A stretch of 50,723 nt of DNA from an uncultured Bdellovibrionales bacterium (GTDB lineage: Bacteria > Patescibacteriota > Minisyncoccia > Moranbacterales > UBA2206): the NCBI GenBank assembly GCA_964547585.1, contig CAZJOI010000004.1, forward strand, positions 1 through 50,723, in the 5' to 3' direction. The translations under genes and the position numbers were made by a program. Every line of letters starts with the position of its first letter. Position 1 is the first letter of the stretch. Below, in pieces: positions 5,666-43,932 of the stretch. The notes beneath the pieces are model-generated. The model was not told the DNA's origin. It searched no databases and saw only the letters and a program-made list of their open reading frames with translations.

Positions 5666-6914
5666 ACTTTTTTTAATTCTTTGCATCTTACTTCCTTTTC
5701 AGATAGCGCTTAATCCGACAGAGGGAGTTGACTTAGCTTCTGTTAGAATTTTTGTTTTATTGCTTTTCTTTTCCTGTTTGGCAGAAGGATTAAAAAACAA
5801 AAAACTAAAAATTCCATTTAACATTAGAACTGGACTAATTTTTTCCTTTCTTTTTTTGAACACATTTTCAGTTTTTGTAGCCAGAAACAGTGATTGGTCA
5901 ATTCGAAAGTTAATGTTTCTTTTTTCCATTTTTCCTATTTATTTTGTGGCAGTATATTTAATAAACAGCAAAAAAAGATTGGTTACTGCTACCAAGTGGA
6001 TTGTTTCTGGTGGAACGCTGGTGGCCTTTTTAGGTATAGCTCAGTTTTTAGCACAGTTTGTTTTTGGTCTAGAGCGTGTTTATAAATTCTGGGCGGACCA
6101 CATAATCGTGCCCTTTTTGGGAAAGACGTTTGCCCTAGCAGTTTTGCAAAATCCTAGCTGGTTAGTCAATATTTCAGGGAAGACTTATTTGCGGTCCACA
6201 GCTACCTTCCCAGACCCTCATATGCTGTCTTTTTTTCTGGGAATTATTTTATCTTTGGCTCTGACTCTTTTTTTAGTAGAGAAGAAAAAATTTTTTTATG
6301 GTTCTATTTCTCTTGTTTTAGTAATTGCGGATATGTTAACTTTTTCGAGGGGTGGATATTTAGGAATAGCCATTGGCATAATTTTTTTGGTAGTTTTTTT
6401 CTGGAAAAGAATTGATTTGCGAATGAGAATAATCTTTATTGCCATTTGTTTTTTGGTCGGGTTGATCTCGACAATTCCTAATCCGATTTCTGGAAGATAT
6501 GCTTCTATTTTTAATCTTAGGGAAGGTTCGAATATGGGGCGAATCGAGATTTGGCAAAAAACACTTAGTATAATCGAAAATAAGCCCTGGCTAGGTGTTG
6601 GCATTGGTAATTATTCTCTTGAAATAAAGCCTACAGCGGCCTACAGGGAGCCTTTCTATGCCCACAACACATATTTGGACATAGCAGCCGAAACGGGTGT
6701 AGGTAACGCATTTGTTTGGATTGGCATTCTCTTTCTTTTTTGGCGAGCTTTTAAAAGAAAAGCTCAAAAAGAAGTGTTCTTTTTGGGTCCAGCACTAGCC
6801 ATTGTTATTTTTGCTACACACTCATTGGTTGAAACAGCCATATATTCCTCCACCGTCCTAGTTTTGTTTTTGATTGTTCTTAGTTTTAGTAATATTAAAT
6901 CAGATGAAGCTTAG
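5655..6914 (+). CDS. O-antigen ligase / polymerase-like (Wzy_C-type) polytopic membrane protein
   Basis: About 10 TM segments. The FSRGGYLGIAIG motif and a periplasmic loop ...GVGIGNY...YAHNTYLDIAAETG are typical of the O-antigen ligase family. The first ATG is at 5655, overlapping the upstream stop by 11 nt. Confidence 0.75.
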   Translation: MLYKLFLILCILLPFQIALNPTEGVDLASVRIFVLLLFFSCLAEGLKNKKLKIPFNIRTGLIFSFLFLNTFSVFVARNSDWSIRKLMFLFSIFPIYFVAVYLINSKKRLVTATKWIVSGGTLVAFLGIAQFLAQFVFGLERVYKFWADHIIVPFLGKTFALAVLQNPSWLVNISGKTYLRSTATFPDPHMLSFFLGIILSLALTLFLVEKKKFFYGSISLVLVIADMLTFSRGGYLGIAIGIIFLVVFFWKRIDLRMRIIFIAICFLVGLISTIPNPISGRYASIFNLREGSNMGRIEIWQKTLSIIENKPWLGVGIGNYSLEIKPTAAYREPFYAHNTYLDIAAETGVGNAFVWIGILFLFWRAFKRKAQKEVFFLGPALAIVIFATHSLVETAIYSSTVLVLFLIVLSFSNIKSDEA

Positions 6915-8097
6915 TGTAATTAAAAAAAATTATTTAGAAAGAGTTAATTTGGAAAATTGGCTATGCCTTTCTATTTTTTTGTTGCCAACTTATCTGATAA
7001 AGGTGGATATTTTTATTTTTCCAACAAATATTTTAGAAATTATAATAGCCGTCGGATTTTTTTGGTGGTTTTTAGATAGAAAGCACACCTTCTCTTTCAG
7101 AACTGCGCAGATAAAGTATACAAAATATCTGCTGCCACTGGGATTAATTTTCTTTGGGTTAATCACAGGGACTATTTTAAGTGGAAATTATCGTGTGGGC
7201 CTGGGCATAATTAAAGGCTGGTTTATTTTTCCTCTTTTGTTTTTGTTCGTTTCCTCGGAGATTCTAGATAGCCAAAAATTGAAAAGGCTTTTCCAATGGT
7301 TTTATTTTTCAGCTCTAACAATTGCCTTGGTCTCCGTTGGCTATTGGTTTTTTGGCCAAATGACATTTGATGCCAGGCTCAAGGCTGTTTTTAATTCTCC
7401 TAATTACTTGGCAATGTATTTGTCGCCAGCTATAGCCATTGGGTTGGTCTTATTTCGAGAAAATAAAAAATTCTATTTTGCGTCGCTGGGCTTGATTTTT
7501 TTAGTCATTTTTTTTACTTATTCTTTTTCTGCTTGGATAGCAGTTGCCGCTTCTTCCATAGTGACCATTTTTTTGACTAAGGGAGTCAGCAAAAGAACTT
7601 TATGTGGGTTAGCTGGTATTATTTTATTTATTTTAATTTCATTTTTTGTTTTTGAATTAAAAAATAAAAAAGTGCAAGATGTTGTTTCTTTTTCTGAACG
7701 ATCTTCTGTGTCTTCACGATTAATGATATGGAGGACGGCCGAAAAATTGATTCAAGATAATGTTTTTTGGGGAATTGGCCCCGGAAACTTCCAAAATAAA
7801 TATTTGGAATATCAAAAATTTTACCCACCCTATTTGGAGTGGGCGGTTCCGCACCCGCACAATATATTTTTGGCTTTTTGGCTCTATTCTGGGATAACTG
7901 GGCTTTTTGGTTTTTTGTTTTTGTTGAGCATCTTCTTCAGAGAATTTTTTAAAGAACAAAAAAACGCCCTAAAGTTTATGGCGTTGGGTATGATGATTAT
8001 TTTTCTTGTCCAAGGTCTTGCGGATACGACTTACTTTAAAAATGATTTGGCAATAATTTTTTGGTTAGCTTGCTTGGGGATGATGAAAAAACTATAG
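6904..8097 (+). CDS. Second O-antigen ligase-like (Wzy_C-type) membrane protein
   Basis: Polytopic. YSFSAWIAVAASS...WGIGPGNF...HPHNIFLAFWLYSGITG matches the same family pattern. The ATG at 6904 overlaps the upstream stop by 11 nt. Confidence 0.7.
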   Translation: MKLSVIKKNYLERVNLENWLCLSIFLLPTYLIKVDIFIFPTNILEIIIAVGFFWWFLDRKHTFSFRTAQIKYTKYLLPLGLIFFGLITGTILSGNYRVGLGIIKGWFIFPLLFLFVSSEILDSQKLKRLFQWFYFSALTIALVSVGYWFFGQMTFDARLKAVFNSPNYLAMYLSPAIAIGLVLFRENKKFYFASLGLIFLVIFFTYSFSAWIAVAASSIVTIFLTKGVSKRTLCGLAGIILFILISFFVFELKNKKVQDVVSFSERSSVSSRLMIWRTAEKLIQDNVFWGIGPGNFQNKYLEYQKFYPPYLEWAVPHPHNIFLAFWLYSGITGLFGFLFLLSIFFREFFKEQKNALKFMALGMMIIFLVQGLADTTYFKNDLAIIFWLACLGMMKKL

Positions 8098-9219
8098 GCT
8101 CATTTTGTAAAGCCGATTGTCAATACGATTCACAAAGAAAAGAAAACTTTCATTGGAGTTGAGAAAAAGACTAGTAACATCAAGCTGGCCTTTTATTTTA
8201 TCTAAATCCACTAATCTTGTTTTTTCTCCAGTGGTTATGTCGACTCTCCAAAAAGTATCGGTGGTGGATATCTTCCCGTTTATGTAGTCATTAGGCAAGA
8301 TAGAATTATCCGGAATAGATCCGGGCAAGGCATAGTAAATTGTTTTGTTGTCCTTAGACCAAATGCATTTTGAGGCAAACGTCGGAATATTAAGGGCTCG
8401 GTAATCTTTCCCTTGGTTATTCAAGAGGTAGAGAGAATTTTTCGTTCCACCCTTTTTATCAGAACTGCTAAATAAAACATAATTACCGTCATTGCTCCAG
8501 AGATAGTCAGTTCCAAAATTTCCACTAAAGAGAGTTTTAGTTTCCCCTCCGAGAATAGAGACTGTTCCTAGGATCGTCTCCGTGTTTGCGTCAGGTGAAT
8601 TCCAAACGGAAAGTAATCCCGATTTGGGTATGGGGGTCATGGAAATATACTTTGTGTTTATGGGTGTTAACTTGGTCCAATTTTTCCCATTGGGATCGGA
8701 AATATTTAGAGATCCGCTTTTTGTCGTAGAGTCAAAATATTTATAGATTATTCTAGAATCACTTTGCCAAGTAACTGCATCAATATTTCCGCTCAGTAAA
8801 GATCCGGTCGAAGTACTGTAGTCATAAAAACCAAACTGAGAGTAACCGCTTAAAAACTTAGTCTTGGTTATAACCTTGTTTTTGTCGGGAGACCAGAGAA
8901 CACTTTCGAGCCCCGGCAATGTTTTTTCAGAGAGAGTTTTTTTATTATTGCCATCTAAGTCTGTTTGATAGGCTTTGCCGTCATTTTTTGAATAATATTT
9001 AACATTGGATCCGTCGCCTGTGAGGGTTGGGGCTAAAACAGGACCATCGGAAATGGCAGTTATCAAAGAGTTACTTTTATTTACATTAACGGCGGCACTT
9101 TGTGTTGACTGAATTGGCAGGGAATCTTTTTTAAAAGCAAAAAGATAGATCCCTCCAAAAAAAAGGATAACCAAAAGCAAAGAGGAGGATATAATAAATA
9201 TTTTTTTAAGAAGAGACAT
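8092..9219 (-). CDS. N-terminally anchored beta-propeller protein with PD40/TolB-like repeats
   Basis: One N-terminal TM segment. Repeated W-S-P/N/K-D motifs (WSPDKNKV, WNSPDANT, WSNDGNYVLFSS, WSKDNKTIYY) resemble TolB/PD40 blades. Confidence 0.65.
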   Translation of the reverse strand: MSLLKKIFIISSSLLLVILFFGGIYLFAFKKDSLPIQSTQSAAVNVNKSNSLITAISDGPVLAPTLTGDGSNVKYYSKNDGKAYQTDLDGNNKKTLSEKTLPGLESVLWSPDKNKVITKTKFLSGYSQFGFYDYSTSTGSLLSGNIDAVTWQSDSRIIYKYFDSTTKSGSLNISDPNGKNWTKLTPINTKYISMTPIPKSGLLSVWNSPDANTETILGTVSILGGETKTLFSGNFGTDYLWSNDGNYVLFSSSDKKGGTKNSLYLLNNQGKDYRALNIPTFASKCIWSKDNKTIYYALPGSIPDNSILPNDYINGKISTTDTFWRVDITTGEKTRLVDLDKIKGQLDVTSLFLNSNESFLFFVNRIDNRLYKMSL

Positions 9220-40613: not shown

Positions 40614-40848
40614 AAGTTACTTTTAATTGTTAATTTGCCCTTGTGAAAAGCTTTTTTTCACAATGACTAATTATTGTAGCAGACTTGGGTCGGGTTGTCA
40701 AAGGTAAACACCAAAAAATGGCTAAAACAAGCCATTATAATTTTAGCCGTCAGTGTCCCTTGGCTTAAATAAAGCAAAAAGATGCAAAATGCTAGTCCAA
40801 GTTAAAAAAACAAAAACAGCCCAATCAAAGGCCGTTTTTGCAACTTGG

Positions 40849-40997
40849 AGCTGTTTTTATGCGGAAGCTCGAACTTTTTTTGAAAAGAATTTTTGATTTT
40901 ACGCTCGGGCGGGCAAAAAGGGAAAGGGTCTGGGAAAAGGAATTTTTGCCCGCCCTCGCTTTCCGATTCCGATTTTTCCGCCGCCGCCGAATTTCGT
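40849..40997 (+). repeat. Island-terminal 149-nt repeat (A' arm), inverted copy at 43556-43704
   Basis: Hand alignment to the reverse complement of 43556-43704 gives 141/149 identical. It contains a 13-bp hairpin gggcgggcaaaaa/tttttgcccgccc (40907-40919 with 40943-40955). Confidence 0.9.
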
Positions 40998-41039
40998 GCC
41001 AATTTCATTGGCGCGCCGCCTAAAATTTATGCAAAAACA

Positions 41040-42218
41040 CTAGGCGTTTTTTTGGTTACAAATATTTTCTATAAAAATAATGAATTTTTGACTAATACTA
41101 AAACTTTCTTCAACTTCTTTCCTTTCAAATATTTTTCCTTCATGAGCGACATCATTTCTTCTTTTCCGGGCTATCTCACGCCATCTCTTGCATTCATCGC
41201 TCTCTTTTAGAAAACCTTCTTTCTTCGCTTTTAATGCATTTGTAATCAAACATTTTTCCAATTGGATAACCCTCTTATTTGTTGTTGAATATTCACTTTT
41301 ATAATCTTCAAATAAATCTGTAATCTCTTGATCATTTTTTCCATCATCTTTAAGAAATTTTCTAAGATGGAAACTAACAGTCATATCAACAGCTGTATCA
41401 AAATCTACTATTGCTGCTTGATAATCGGCACTCAAACTAATTCTTTCAAGTCCTGAAAGTAACATTCTTCTATACGGTCTTATTTCTGATCCAGAAAGGC
41501 ATTTAAGAAAAGATTCGTATTTTGAAATATCAATCATAGGCTCTTTAATATCAGTTTTAGATACCGAAGCATATCTTCCACGAAAAAGAGGGCTATCGTC
41601 TTTTTCGCTTTTATCACCTCTCATTGGATAAGAGATGAATTTACGCCGCTCCTTTTGAAGTTTAAATAAATTTTCCGTTGGATTATTTTTTTCAGTTTCA
41701 GAAAATTCACTTATGTAACACAATGTATAAAGTGAAAAATCATCCTCTATCGACAAGAATCTATTTCTTACGCTACCAATTTGTCTATATGCGGATAAAA
41801 ATTTATTAAAAAATGAATACATGCGATTGAATGCTTTATTGCACGCGCTATCATCATGTAGGCAAAATATATCATCTGTTACAAAAACAATCTCTATTTC
41901 AGAAAAAAACCAAGGATAAATTACATGACCACCTTCGCCAGCCACGATCTGCGTGACACCTCCGTTTTCTAAGACTAATTTAAGGTAAGCACTCTTATCT
42001 GAAAAGTGTAATTTTTCTAGAAATGAACTCTCGCCAGTTCTTTCTCTTTGAACATACCTTTTATCAAAAGATTGAATGCCTTCTTTACGAAAAATCTTAA
42101 CCAAAGCAACATCTTTTTTTGGGAAAAGTGTTACTGGATAATAAAAATTGGATGAAACTCCCAAATCGAAAGGATAATCAAAAACAAATTTAATTAATCC
42201 TGAGGTTTTTTTATCCAT
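41040..42218 (-). CDS. Hypothetical protein with a C-terminal HEPN-like Rx4H motif (candidate RNase/abortive-infection effector)
   Basis: C-terminal helical region ...YQAAIVDFDTAVDMTVSFHLRKFL...RWREIARKRRNDVAHEGKIFERKEV... contains R-N-D-V-A-H, the Rx4-6H motif in the RNxxxH form typical of HEPN. The first ATG is at 42218 (MDKKTSG); the ORF-track start is a TTG. Confidence 0.6.
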   Translation of the reverse strand: MDKKTSGLIKFVFDYPFDLGVSSNFYYPVTLFPKKDVALVKIFRKEGIQSFDKRYVQRERTGESSFLEKLHFSDKSAYLKLVLENGGVTQIVAGEGGHVIYPWFFSEIEIVFVTDDIFCLHDDSACNKAFNRMYSFFNKFLSAYRQIGSVRNRFLSIEDDFSLYTLCYISEFSETEKNNPTENLFKLQKERRKFISYPMRGDKSEKDDSPLFRGRYASVSKTDIKEPMIDISKYESFLKCLSGSEIRPYRRMLLSGLERISLSADYQAAIVDFDTAVDMTVSFHLRKFLKDDGKNDQEITDLFEDYKSEYSTTNKRVIQLEKCLITNALKAKKEGFLKESDECKRWREIARKRRNDVAHEGKIFERKEVEESFSISQKFIIFIENICNQKNA

Positions 42219-42228
42219 GTAAGAAAGC

Positions 42229-42540
42229 TTAGACAAGTAATAAAACAAAAAAGAATTTGGTTGCAAAGAAAGTTATAATAACGCTCAAAACGGTAATCAA
42301 AATGGAAATACTGGGAAATAATCGCTTTAGAATAAATAATGGCATCGCAATTAAAATGCTAGTAAGAAACAATCCTCCTATTAAAAATAAAGTTGCCCAT
42401 ATCCAACCACCAACATCACCGCTCACAGTAAATACCATATAAACATATGAAATAAAAAAGACCGCCATAATTAATTTGCTAAAAGAATTGGCTTTTGCAT
42501 TATAGTCTGGCTGGCTAGATATTTGTTGTAATTTATTCAT
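42229..42540 (-). CDS. Small 3-TM membrane protein
   Basis: 103 aa with three hydrophobic segments. It ends 10 nt upstream of the next gene. Confidence 0.6.
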   Translation of the reverse strand: MNKLQQISSQPDYNAKANSFSKLIMAVFFISYVYMVFTVSGDVGGWIWATLFLIGGLFLTSILIAMPLFILKRLFPSISILITVLSVIITFFATKFFFVLLLV

Positions 42541-42568
42541 ATTTTTTAGTTTTAGTAAAAATTGATCC

Positions 42569-43153
42569 TTATTTTATTCCGTCAATAGTGTCCGTCTGAT
42601 CCTTTTCAGCCAGAAGAACAGCGAGTTCATCAAATAATTGACGGTCTGTGTTAAGTAATTGATGCATGCTATTCATATTTTTTTCCACAATAGAAGCTAA
42701 AAAATAACGAAGAGGAGCAACTCCTTTTGTTACCTCTAACAAAATTCGCATTAAATCAAGGTTATTATATATATCTACATTATGCGCATAAAACTTATTG
42801 AATCCCCATGTGTATGGAAATGACTGGCAAAGAAACATTTTTGCATAACGACTTTCTTTTTCCCCCATTGATGGTATGAGAGCAACATAAGCATTACCTA
42901 TTAGTGCTAAGGGAACTCCAATAATTGAAGATAGTGGTCTTAAGATTTTTATTTTTTCATAAACATAAGATAGTCCAAGGAGTGGTCCTAAAAATATTAT
43001 TGTCCACACCGAGCTCATTAGCAAAAGTAAAAGTACTCCGATAATAGGTATGGAAACGAATAATCCTAAAATTAAAGTTGTCAGCATCTGAACAGGAACA
43101 ACAATAATTCCTGTAGCCCCCACGAGTATTCTTAAAATTTTGTTTGTAACCAT
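42569..43153 (-). CDS. Membrane protein (3-4 N-terminal TM segments plus a soluble C-terminal domain)
   Basis: 194-aa ORF starting 14 nt downstream of the XRE gene stop. Confidence 0.6.
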   Translation of the reverse strand: MVTNKILRILVGATGIIVVPVQMLTTLILGLFVSIPIIGVLLLLLMSSVWTIIFLGPLLGLSYVYEKIKILRPLSSIIGVPLALIGNAYVALIPSMGEKESRYAKMFLCQSFPYTWGFNKFYAHNVDIYNNLDLMRILLEVTKGVAPLRYFLASIVEKNMNSMHQLLNTDRQLFDELAVLLAEKDQTDTIDGIK

Positions 43154-43167
43154 GGCTTTTTAAAAAA

Positions 43168-43365
43168 TTATTTAATCAATTCATCAACACTAACTTCAAG
43201 CGCTTTGGAAATTTTTTTAAGCGTATCAAGTGTTGGATTTTGATTTTTTCCAGCTTCAATCTTGATAATTGTATTATTGGCAACATCGGCTAATCTTGCC
43301 AGTTTTTCTTGAGATAATCCTTTGGCTTCTCTAAGTTTCCTAAGTGTTTTTTGAATGTTTGACAT
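43168..43365 (-). CDS. XRE-family helix-turn-helix transcriptional regulator
   Basis: LRKLREAKGLSQEKLARLADVANNTIIKIEAGKNQNPTLDTLKKISKALEVSVDELI is the HTH_3 pattern. Confidence 0.9.
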   Translation of the reverse strand: MSNIQKTLRKLREAKGLSQEKLARLADVANNTIIKIEAGKNQNPTLDTLKKISKALEVSVDELIK

Positions 43366-43409
43366 ACTTATATTATAGTAGTAGAATTATATTATTAGTA
43401 CTATTTCCT

Positions 43410-43431
43410 TTCAGCTACTTTTCAGCTACTT
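43410..43431. promoter_or_regulatory. Perfect tandem 2 x 11-nt repeat (tcagctacttt) upstream of the XRE operon; candidate operator
   Basis: Read directly. On the minus strand a TATAAT lies 7 nt upstream of the XRE ATG (ACTACTATAATATAAGTATG), which suggests a leaderless or near-leaderless transcript. Confidence 0.4.
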
Positions 43432-43555
43432 TAATGCTACACCAAAAATCAAAAATAGCAAATACAAAAGGGAGTTATTTTGCGTTGTGTGCGCAAGGGC
43501 GGGCGGGGCAAACACAACCACATATGCCTTGGTGGCGCTTTTCGCAAAGCGAAAA

Positions 43556-43704
43556 ACGAAATTTGGCGGCGGCGGAAAAATCAGAATTTGAAAGCGAGGG
43601 CGGGCAAAAATTCCTTTTCCCAGACCCTTTCCCTTTTTGCCCGCCCGAGCGCAAAATCAAAAATCCTTTTCAAAAAAAGTTCGAGCTTCTGAATAAAAAC
43701 AGCT
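43556..43704 (-). repeat. Inverted internal copy of the island-terminal repeat (A' arm)
   Basis: See 40849-40997: about 95 % identity in reverse complement. Confidence 0.9.
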
Positions 43705-43878
43705 CATTTCGGAAAATCGCATTTTTGAAAGCGCGATTTTCCATTAGTTTAGGGCTTGAAAACTCACGATTTTGTTTTGGAGAGTCCAATTCATTTGAGC
43801 GAAGCTCAAATTTGAATAAAATTCAACAGCCGATTTTTTGCATTTTCGCCAAAGGCGAAATTTCCAAATTTTCAGAGT
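43702..43878 (-). pseudogene. Fossil of a serine-recombinase 3' end (inverted copy of 45261-45402)
   Basis: The reverse complement aligns to the live recombinase 3' end: the first 86 nt are 82/86 identical, then a 36-nt indel, then patchy identity. Translation gives SENLE..KIG..NWTLQNKIVSFQALN*WKIALSKMRFSEMS with in-frame stops. Confidence 0.7.
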
Positions 43879-43932
43879 AAAAAAAGCGCCAATTTTTGTC
43901 CAAAAGCAATTTTAATAATCAAAATAAATAAT

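Follow-up and report, generated by a model that had tools for sequence, protein, structure and literature searches.

An inverted second attachment site is a standard component of a family of serine-integrase islands at tRNA genes

The window (the whole stretch of 50,723 nucleotides analysed here) carries, directly at the 3' end of a tRNA-Gly gene, a small island with three cargo reading frames and a helix-turn-helix (HTH) gene on the minus strand and a large serine integrase gene on the plus strand. The features of the island and of its flanks, in window positions, are the following:

40810-40841, minus strand: intrinsic-terminator-like hairpin of the tRNA operon (terminator scan), which is the native chromosomal flank and left half of attB adjoining the island, and which follows directly after tRNA-Gly in the empty site of the relative L165
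40848-40851, plus strand: core GAGC at attL, the crossover region common to the three sites (three-way junction comparison, empty site)
40848-40997, plus strand: left arm L, the P' half of attP, now in attL (repeat search, alignment), with a T-loop mimic, GCTCGAAC, at +16..+23 and a GC-rich hairpin of 13 bp
41040-42266, minus strand: cargo gene, 408 aa, without family match
42229-42540, minus strand: cargo ORF, 103 aa, without family match
42569-43153, minus strand: cargo ORF, 194 aa, without family match
43168-43365, minus strand: Xre-type HTH gene, 65 aa (Pfam HTH_3, 3.6e-18; clustering)
43359-43414, both strands: overlapping divergent sigma-70-like promoters (consensus matches only), the plus strand candidate TTGACA-17-TAGAAT (43359-43387) facing the internal site and the integrase gene, the minus strand candidate CTGAAA-17-TATAAT facing the HTH operon
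43556-43705, minus strand: L', the inverted internal copy of L and part of the internal attP (142/150 against 40848-40997)
43702-43792, minus strand: R' block 1, the inverted internal copy of the integrase 3' end (86/91 against 45312-45402), which together with L' forms a complete inverted attP
43793-43827: 34 nt inserted in the internal copy as compared with the gene (alignment), with two small palindromes and a weak promoter-like TTGAGC-16-TAAAAT at 43795-43822 on the plus strand
43828-43876, minus strand: R' block 2, a weak outer extension (collinear with 45265-45310, score 17)
43933-45408, plus strand: large serine recombinase (integrase), 491 aa (Pfam Resolvase, Recombinase and Zn_ribbon_recom)
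45312-45402, plus strand: right arm R, made up of the last 30 integrase codons, the P half of attP, now in attR
45399-45471, minus strand: tRNA-Gly(GCC), the target (ARAGORN, Rfam, motif positions)

The three integrase domains score above the curated Pfam cut-offs (PF00239, 1.1e-22; PF07508, 6.2e-17; PF13408, 6.3e-07), and the protein matches the integrase family PHROG 95 (1.7e-78); a candidate coiled-coil segment can be read from the protein sequence, and a look-up of the exact sequence returned no match. The final codons of the gene run into the 3' end of the oppositely oriented tRNA-Gly(GCC) gene, with the stop codon coming from the tRNA-side sequence, and the 3' end of the tRNA in turn overlaps the core, its T-loop motif CGAAC lying at +14 from there. 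In the search for defence functions in the cargo of the window, PADLOC and PHROGs matched the HTH gene only, apart from a single weak PHROG match of the 408-aa cargo protein, to a family of unknown function. R' block 1 holds a palindrome with a 10-bp stem, with fold z-scores of -3.2 and -2.7 on the two strands, and a search of Rfam at E <= 1 found tRNAs only and no other RNA family.

The borders of the island are given by a contig from a close relative without it (L165), in which the tRNA-Gly gene is joined directly to the left flank at GAGC (...ctGAGCgggtaacggg...). This contig carries the gene for ribosomal protein L19, the same tRNA cluster, the terminator of the tRNA operon and the 3D gene; its flanking 3D-domain protein is 97% identical to that of the window, and the DNA flanks are 92-99% identical. 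It follows that the island (40852-45402) measures 4.55 kb and was inserted at GAGC, in the 3' end of tRNA-Gly, with attL at 40848 and attR at 45402. The host resembles Moranbacteria, which belong to the Patescibacteria. The discrete insertion relative to a related empty attB, and the few core bases that are shared, are those of a large serine integrase.

Two pairs of inverted repeats were found within the island by repeat search, local alignment and blastn alike (blastn E-values from 1e-35 to 1e-63). The first, 40848-40997 against 43556-43705, has 142 identical positions over 150 nt and encloses the cargo, and the second, 43702-43792 against 45312-45402, has 86 identical positions over 91 nt and encloses the recombinase gene. 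The internal arms of the two pairs share exactly 4 nt, GAGC/GCTC, and on the minus strand the stretch from 43792 to 43702 runs on into that from 43705 to 43556, so that the end of the recombinase gene is joined at GAGC to a copy of the left end of the island, as in the predicted junction of the circular form. An extension of the second pair to 43876/45265 is weak, with a score of 17 against a mean of 10.7 in shuffled sequences (sd 1.7, maximum 19); it is collinear, and the alignment is broken by the 34-nt insertion in the internal copy. The earlier note on this DNA had described the same anatomy, an inverted copy of the attP junction with one repeat pair enclosing the cargo and another the recombinase gene, and it was right in this, the pairs lying side by side; its figures (141/149, 82/86 and 140-175 nt) are essentially those re-measured here, together with the weak extension. 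It had also allowed that the repeat might turn out to be a multicopy MITE, for which there is no sign in the window, as blastn detects no third copy of either arm within the 50.7 kb. When the internal copy is translated in the frame of the recombinase, an in-frame stop appears, which is irrelevant because the internal copy is not a gene.

The 5% mismatch between the internal copy and the ends had been read as degradation. However, comparison with a relative whose integrase is 98% identical (L163) points to a different origin. Between 44260 and 45408 (1,149 nt, including the right arm) there is not a single difference between the window and L163, whereas from the internal site up to 44259 the two differ by 6-14%; moreover, the left arm of the window is 98% identical to the internal L' of L163, as against about 94% for the internal copy of the window itself. 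From the abrupt end of the differences at 44260, the element in the window is a recombinant with a breakpoint near 44260 in the integrase gene, whose outer ends and internal site stem from two lineages, and this explains the 5% mismatch of the arms. Decay of the internal copy in situ was rejected on account of the same abrupt stop.

A protein search with the integrase returned thousands of homologues (roughly 7,000), mostly from Patescibacteria. For the survey of homologous islands that had been called for in the earlier note, I used 160 loci from metagenomes and genomes in which the integrase is 50-90% identical to that of the window. An inverted repeat of about 78-147 nt surrounds the integrase gene in 146 of the 160 loci, one arm being the last part of the gene and the other lying 20-450 nt upstream of its start. 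Within a locus the two arms are mostly 98-100% identical; the identity is perfect in 52 of 120 distinct pairs, and most of the remaining pairs are at least 97% identical. The 3' arm adjoins a tRNA gene in 108 of 137 loci with such a repeat, the tRNAs being Gly, Gln, Ser, Trp, Asn or Val. The repeat around the cargo is present in all 37 loci in which the left end is visible, with a length of 49-409 nt (at least 105 nt in all but one), and in each of these 37 its internal arm adjoins the upstream integrase arm with an overlap of 3-21 nt. This overlap, the core, is complementary to the tRNA at its 3' end, in the discriminator and CCA region. The layout is uniform throughout: the left site consists of flank, core and L, the internal site, read on the minus strand, of R, core and L, and the right site of R, core and tRNA, the chromosomal left half-site being unconserved across the family. 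The arms vary greatly between elements and agree within each element, from which it follows that the copies evolve in concert. The internal site is thus a standard component of this element family and not a scar, and the term fossil, which had been applied to it, does not suit a site that recurs in 146 of 160 relatives with arms that are usually 98-100% identical.

Some integrated elements with an intact integrase have poorly matched internal arms (71% identity in L138 and 77% in L036), and in three others, likewise integrated and with intact integrase genes (L113, L151 and L088), internal arms were not detected, so that the site is dispensable for persistence. On the cargo side, the HTH gene is the only gene that is conserved family-wide (cluster c0, present in 24 of 37 elements, 65-75 aa), and in 23 of these 24 it adjoins the internal site and is divergent from the integrase. 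No conserved gene for a directionality factor was identified in the family, the Xre-type HTH gene being the only conserved companion of the integrase. A stop-free frame of 118-247 codons on the plus strand spans the internal site in most loci and is annotated as an ORF by gene callers; a coding gene across the site was rejected, as substitutions between relatives fall on codon positions 1, 2 and 3 in the proportion 228:196:209.

In serine integrases, the motif bound by the zinc ribbon is shifted by 5 bp between the half-sites of attP and attB, lying nearer to the centre in attB (PMC3783163). The same shift is found here. The T-loop motif CGAAC lies at +19 from the core in L, both at attL and in the internal site, as compared to +14 in the tRNA. 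Among the survey loci, 90 distinct ones have CGRAY at +19 in the L half of the internal site, the offset relative to the tRNA is exactly 5 in 94, and the motif is in place in 102 of 119 distinct internal sites. No comparable motif was found in the left half-sites (flank and R), and the 5-bp rule holds for the right half-sites only. From the sequence and the published model I infer that the internal site is, by this offset, a binding-competent attP, in which L is predicted to mimic the acceptor and T-arm of the tRNA. A palindromic crossover dinucleotide, which would make the polarity of the sites ambiguous, was rejected, since one locus (L062) narrows the shared core to GCT, and in this register GA or AG is left in the window; dyad scans were weak (15/26).

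The elements have moved recently. Integrase genes that are 99.8-100% identical occur in the isolate Schleiferia thermophila DSM 21410, in a Thermodesulfovibrio MAG and in a Patescibacteria MAG. The flanks differ among these three hosts, and so in part does the cargo, which indicates recent mobility. L163, too, lies at a tRNA-Gly gene in another genomic context, with restriction-modification genes as cargo. The junction of R and L, which was not seen for the element of the window itself, occurs in relatives, some of which may be tandem arrays. One contig (L157) is circular, with 4,585 bp and a terminal overlap of 51 nt; its integrase ORF reads through R, TGGCGG and L in succession, with CGAAC at +19, and it has an assembly gap where the internal site is expected. 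The 3' end of the integrase is joined to an L-type arm in L161, L162 and L002 as well, and these junctions probably come from arrays or from recombinants between elements, while a fragment of R to the left of the left arm in L126 indicates that this element is part of an array. A phage origin was rejected, the collection of viral contigs giving a single distant match (45% identity). Swapping of cargo at the arms or cores was also rejected: between near-identical elements with different cargo, the homology stops within the cargo arc, on the left some 80 nt inside the arm and on the right past the HTH gene.

The account that I favour, and that I consider reasonably probable as a whole, is that of an inverted attP that is standard in the family, is kept matched to the ends by recombination and serves as a regulatory binding site for the integrase. 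Every element consists of two arcs, the cargo and the integrase gene, split by two inverted copies of attP. The first copy, the junction of R and L, is divided by integration into attL (flank joined to L) and attR (R joined to tRNA), and the second stays whole, inverted, between the cargo and the integrase gene. The two copies co-vary over their full extent. Mismatches between the arms are spread evenly along their length, and the extra conservation near the core that is expected under selection for binding only was not seen, which suggests that the copies would be kept matched by homologous exchange or gene conversion, or by selection for matching, and not by binding alone. Occasional inversions of the cargo would follow from exchange between the copies. 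It should be mentioned that binding by itself needs no 90-400 nt of perfect identity, an observation that goes against the favoured account, as do the integrated elements with poorly matched or undetected internal arms, the single orientation of the insertions, and the co-varying block of one subfamily described below.

With respect to what the internal site might do, its position is suggestive. It lies between the HTH operon and the start of the integrase in 23 of the 24 elements with an HTH gene, and strong promoter-like sites on the plus strand are found on its cargo side in 10 of the 12 loci having one. The site may be a retained full-affinity binding site for the integrase that survives integration and allows feedback on the expression of the integrase and of the repressor. 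In Tn3, res is a recombinase-binding site in the control region of the recombinase gene and serves for negative autoregulation. The overlap of attL and intS in prophage KplE1 is a further precedent for an autoregulatory recombination site (PMC2951348). A regulatory role, argued from position and precedent only, is the most likely role of the internal site and at the same time the least certain part of the account. Secondarily, the site could be a substrate for recombination; it would not act as a flip switch balanced between an on and an off state of the integrase gene.

That either segment could flip had been proposed earlier, and this is supported for the cargo and not for the integrase segment. 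Among the 37 elements in which the orientation of the cargo was assessed, the cargo arc is inverted in L085 relative to L002 and in L126 relative to L142, the alignments showing homology at either end of the cargo, and gene order alone suggests a third inversion in L124. The integrase arc is flipped relative to the tRNA at its 3' end in none of 108 loci, as judged from consensus assemblies, in which minority orientations are invisible. A programmed inversion switch, in which the integrase or RecA would flip the cargo arc, the integrase arc or both and so set the timing of excision, is an unlikely explanation. The geometry as such, a segment between inverted repeats with a recombinase nearby, is that of an inverton, and it fits invertible segments as well as the two-arc layout of the 2-micron plasmid or of class E herpesvirus genomes. 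The arms are near-perfect over their full length, and cargo arcs are indeed inverted between relatives. A flip would provide the integrase with another promoter, either its own in the cargo arc or read-through from the tRNA operon, and with a new C-terminal tail: the promoter candidate that suits the integrase best is located in the cargo arc and would be uncoupled from the gene if the cargo inverted, and a flipped integrase gene would be co-directional with the tRNA operon and gain a tail of 14 codons encoded by L. However, the integrase arc keeps one orientation in every one of the 108 loci that have a tRNA beside the 3' arm, 23 of the 24 elements with the HTH marker carry it in the usual orientation, and the two flipped-cargo elements with decayed arms (about 86%) look more like a dead end than like a state of a switch. 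Furthermore, the site pairs are not substrates of canonical serine integrases, which do not recombine attP with attL, attR or another attP (PMC3783163), so that inversions and arrays would need homologous recombination or an atypically permissive enzyme.

In the Ser-type subfamily there is a separate block of 26-28 nt with GGCTCGAAC, about 20 nt to the cargo side of L', which co-varies with a partner inside the integrase gene across a non-homologous gap. Gene conversion accounts poorly for this co-variation, which would be explained if the internal site acted as RNA. Its transcript, in the 5' leader of the integrase, would be an antisense RNA for the final 90-135 nt of the integrase mRNA and would match both arms, P and P', by complementarity, and it could control the stability or translation of the mRNA by means of a long duplex. 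Selection for base pairing would also explain the identity over whole arms and the uniform spread of mismatches, and the strong promoter-like sites that precede the internal site in 10 of 12 loci would suit such a transcript. Nevertheless I consider this improbable, as only R' is needed for it, leaving unexplained both the abutment of L' and R' at the exact core and the presence of L around the cargo; in addition, a continuous helix would require the second block of the Ser-type elements to lie on the other side of L', and there is no Rfam match.

Just as improbable is a second working attP, by which the circle would integrate via either of its sites, or via both into two tRNA genes (a natural exchange of cassettes, or an inversion of the chromosome), and by which an integrated copy would also recombine with a further tRNA gene. 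The full attP signature of the internal site speaks for it, as do four loci (L009/L147, L045 and L132) with a tRNA instead of L' at the upstream arm, since an integrase gene between two inverted tRNA genes is the expected product of the internal attP and a second attB, and the pTN3 integrase inverts DNA between tRNA-linked sites, though this is a tyrosine integrase (PMC5495485). However, such products are rare (4 of 160 loci), and other histories fit them, L045 having unrelated R arms and a broken integrase gene and L009 arms that are only 85% identical. Integration by the internal site would reverse the orientation of the element, which was not seen, and the benefit to the element is not evident. 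A fully active internal attP predicts half of the insertions to be in opposite orientation, and none was.

Very improbable is that the internal site, as DNA or as leader RNA, acts as a splint that joins or unlocks attL and attR and thereby as a device for directionality. The site is the complement of both arms that belong to the element, P at attR and P' at attL, and not of the chromosomal ones. If true, a two-gene element would excise without a conventional directionality factor, and this would be the first nucleic-acid-assisted step in recombination by a serine integrase.

A scar of tandem or nested integration followed by inversion, as had been proposed earlier, a dispersed MITE and an assembly artefact are hardly credible any more and effectively refuted by the family survey: element arrays do exist (L002, L126, L161 and L162) and the internal copy of the window does differ by 5% from the ends, but the latter is accounted for by the recombination breakpoint, and the site recurs in 146 of the 160 loci, which stem from a large number of assemblies made with various assemblers and include the genome of an isolate, with the same position, orientation and exact junction throughout, without extra copies in the window and in loci that do not form one recent clone (integrase identity 50-90%).

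To return to the favoured account of an inverted attP standard in the family, both the enzyme and the chemistry of insertion fit known serine integrases, and the persistent, intact and inverted second attP does not. The integrases of phiC31, Bxb1, A118/LI and SPbeta (SprA) have the same resolvase, recombinase and zinc-ribbon domains. Large serine integrases of phages and ICEs likewise have a short core without long direct repeats, an attP beside the integrase gene and a motif that lies 5 bp farther out in the attP half-site than in that of attB (PMC3783163). Unlike in these, the crossover in the present family falls within the final integrase codons, insertion is directed to tRNA genes at their 3' end, recognised via the T-arm with only one attB half-site conserved, and a second complete inverted attP is kept after integration. 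No description of an internal inverted attP was found in the literature searched. A recombinase site in the control region between divergent genes is known from res of Tn3/gamma-delta and from attL-PintS of KplE1 (for the latter, PMC2951348). There, however, the regulatory site is the working recombination site, whereas here it would be an additional copy that integration leaves intact.

The two-arc layout with matched inverted repeats resembles, by a comparison from general knowledge, that of two replicating systems. The yeast 2-micron plasmid has two inverted repeats and two unique arcs, one of which encodes the recombinase, and in the class E genome of herpes simplex virus the termini, as joined to each other, are repeated internally in inverted form. 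In both, which are replicating episomes or viruses, the repeat copies evolve in concert and all isomers are abundant. The present elements differ from them as integrative elements of 3.5-7 kb with no conserved replication gene and with a strong bias in orientation. Hin, Gin, Cin and Pin are small invertases that act on sites of 26-34 bp with a Fis-dependent enhancer, both orientations being common. As in these switches, the serine recombinase gene is found inside (Hin) or beside a segment with inverted sites, but the present enzyme is a large integrase with sites of the att type, and one orientation dominates. With tycheposons the family shares the organisation as small cargo islands at tRNA genes. 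According to the preprint that describes them, tycheposons are small cargo elements at tRNA genes, sometimes in arrays and with variable defence or niche cargo, a minority of which have a large serine recombinase, while most have tyrosine integrases and tRNA-derived direct repeats (bioRxiv 10.1101/2020.12.28.424599); the passages searched in that preprint, in contrast to what is found here, make no mention of an internal inverted attachment site.

Serine integrases are a main tool for the insertion of large DNA, and their sites are viewed as an attP and an attB of 40-50 bp, with one attP per element. The family described here is set apart in that it is abundant and recently mobile across phyla, reads the universal T-arm of tRNAs and has a second, inverted attP that stays intact through integration. 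Should the internal site control the expression or the directionality of the integrase, this would be a new regulatory layout for integrases, and should it be recombinationally active, it would be a source of chromosomal inversions from tRNA to tRNA and of rapid exchange of cargo. As a practical matter, short-read assemblies break at these loci on account of the perfect repeats, and spurious ORFs are annotated across the site by gene callers. In one locus (L020) a perfect terminal inverted repeat of 2.1 kb was set aside as a probable fold-back artefact of assembly at the identical arms.

Near-identical integrases (large serine recombinases) of the family are found in different surroundings. 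Five related loci (L120, L121, L122, L053 and L056) hold essentially one element, with integrase genes that are 99.8-100% identical at the nucleotide level and flanks that differ, and the hosts comprise a Bacteroidota isolate, a Thermodesulfovibrio MAG and a Patescibacteria MAG. These elements reflect either very recent transfer across phyla or, for the MAGs, mis-binning. The isolate provides an experimental system for the integrase element. In L163 (1098-5245), the integrase is 98% identical to that of the window and is accompanied by a different cargo.

L120, NZ_QPJS01000004.1: locus of the cultured Bacteroidota isolate Schleiferia thermophila DSM 21410
L163, 1098-5245: cargo of an Eco57I-like enzyme, a DNA methylase, an Alw26I-family endonuclease and an HTH protein
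L163, 442-1068: S24 peptidase gene, further left than the other cargo genes

Turnover of the integrase is much slower than that of the cargo. Within the integrase gene itself, the comparison of the window with L163 shows a sharp recombination breakpoint at 44260: the 1,149 nt on its right side match at 100%, whereas identity on its left side is 86-94%.

Two kinds of candidate accessory sites are observed in or near the attachment arms. An isolated block of 26-28 nt, AAAAAATRTCGGCTCGAACTTYATTT, forms an inverted repeat about 20 nt from the internal copy of the left-end arm, on the cargo side. Its other copy lies in the integrase gene, where it encodes the GSN motif, and the cargo-side block co-varies with this gene copy; the block is possibly an accessory integrase-binding site. 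Furthermore, the arms formed by the integrase 3' end (R arms) carry, in most subfamilies, short GC-rich hairpins or palindromes at a fixed distance of about 40 nt from the core crossover bases, within the region coding for the integrase C-terminus. Their stems vary from subfamily to subfamily (e.g. GCGTCGC-ttt-GCGACGC and GGGGC-gaa-GCCCC), and they are candidate operators or accessory sites.

L071, 2500-2525 and 4146-4171: pair of 26-28-nt blocks, also found in L050, L053, L072, L120 and L146
Window, 45361-45392: equivalent of the R-arm hairpin, GGAAAATCGC-N12-GCGATTTTCC, 9 nt from the core

In many family integrases (P0012, P0020, P0022, P0023, P0026 and P0028), the reading frame meets no stop codon where island and tRNA join and continues through the antisense tRNA into a T-arm-derived tail (..ESNP.. 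or similar); the C-terminal tails therefore differ between the integrated and circular forms. In the circular form, the P' half-site encodes an extra C-terminal stretch of about 14 residues (CFY..FF..N.). On the tRNA side, the inserted island leaves the tRNA-Gly of the window without an encoded CCA after the discriminator (junction GCTC/ATTT), which the bases next to the core (40848-40851) in the left flank would restore (GCTC/CAAG), in a comparison that included the empty site of the relative L165. Elsewhere in the family, TGG comes from the R arm and the encoded CCA is retained.

Across the internal inverted attP copy, most loci have a reading frame of 118-247 codons without a stop; the comparison covered the window (43344-43880, + strand) and the corresponding region of 36 related loci, and the genomes are AT-rich. 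Gene callers pick this frame up as an ORF, for instance at L161 34-465. However, I reject it as a protein-coding gene, because substitutions show no bias towards any codon position (228:196:209).

Short-read assemblies break at these repeats, as many contigs begin 95-140 nt upstream of the internal R-arm copy or stop at the R arm. Contig L020 carries a perfect terminal inverted repeat of 2.1 kb (1-2115 and 6480-8594), with one cargo between two head-out integrase modules; this structure is probably artificial, a fold-back in the assembly that arose from the identical arms.

Beyond the right end of the island, the 3' half of tRNA-Leu(GAG) has a second copy, 77 nt away from the full gene.

45684-45728 and 45761-45805: tRNA-Leu(GAG) 3'-half repeat pair, 45 nt, 96% identical
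45733-45752 and 45842-45861: inverted repeat bracketing the full gene, 20 nt, 95%

A small tandem duplication could account for the partial copy and the inverted repeat, as could an attachment site left behind by another element.
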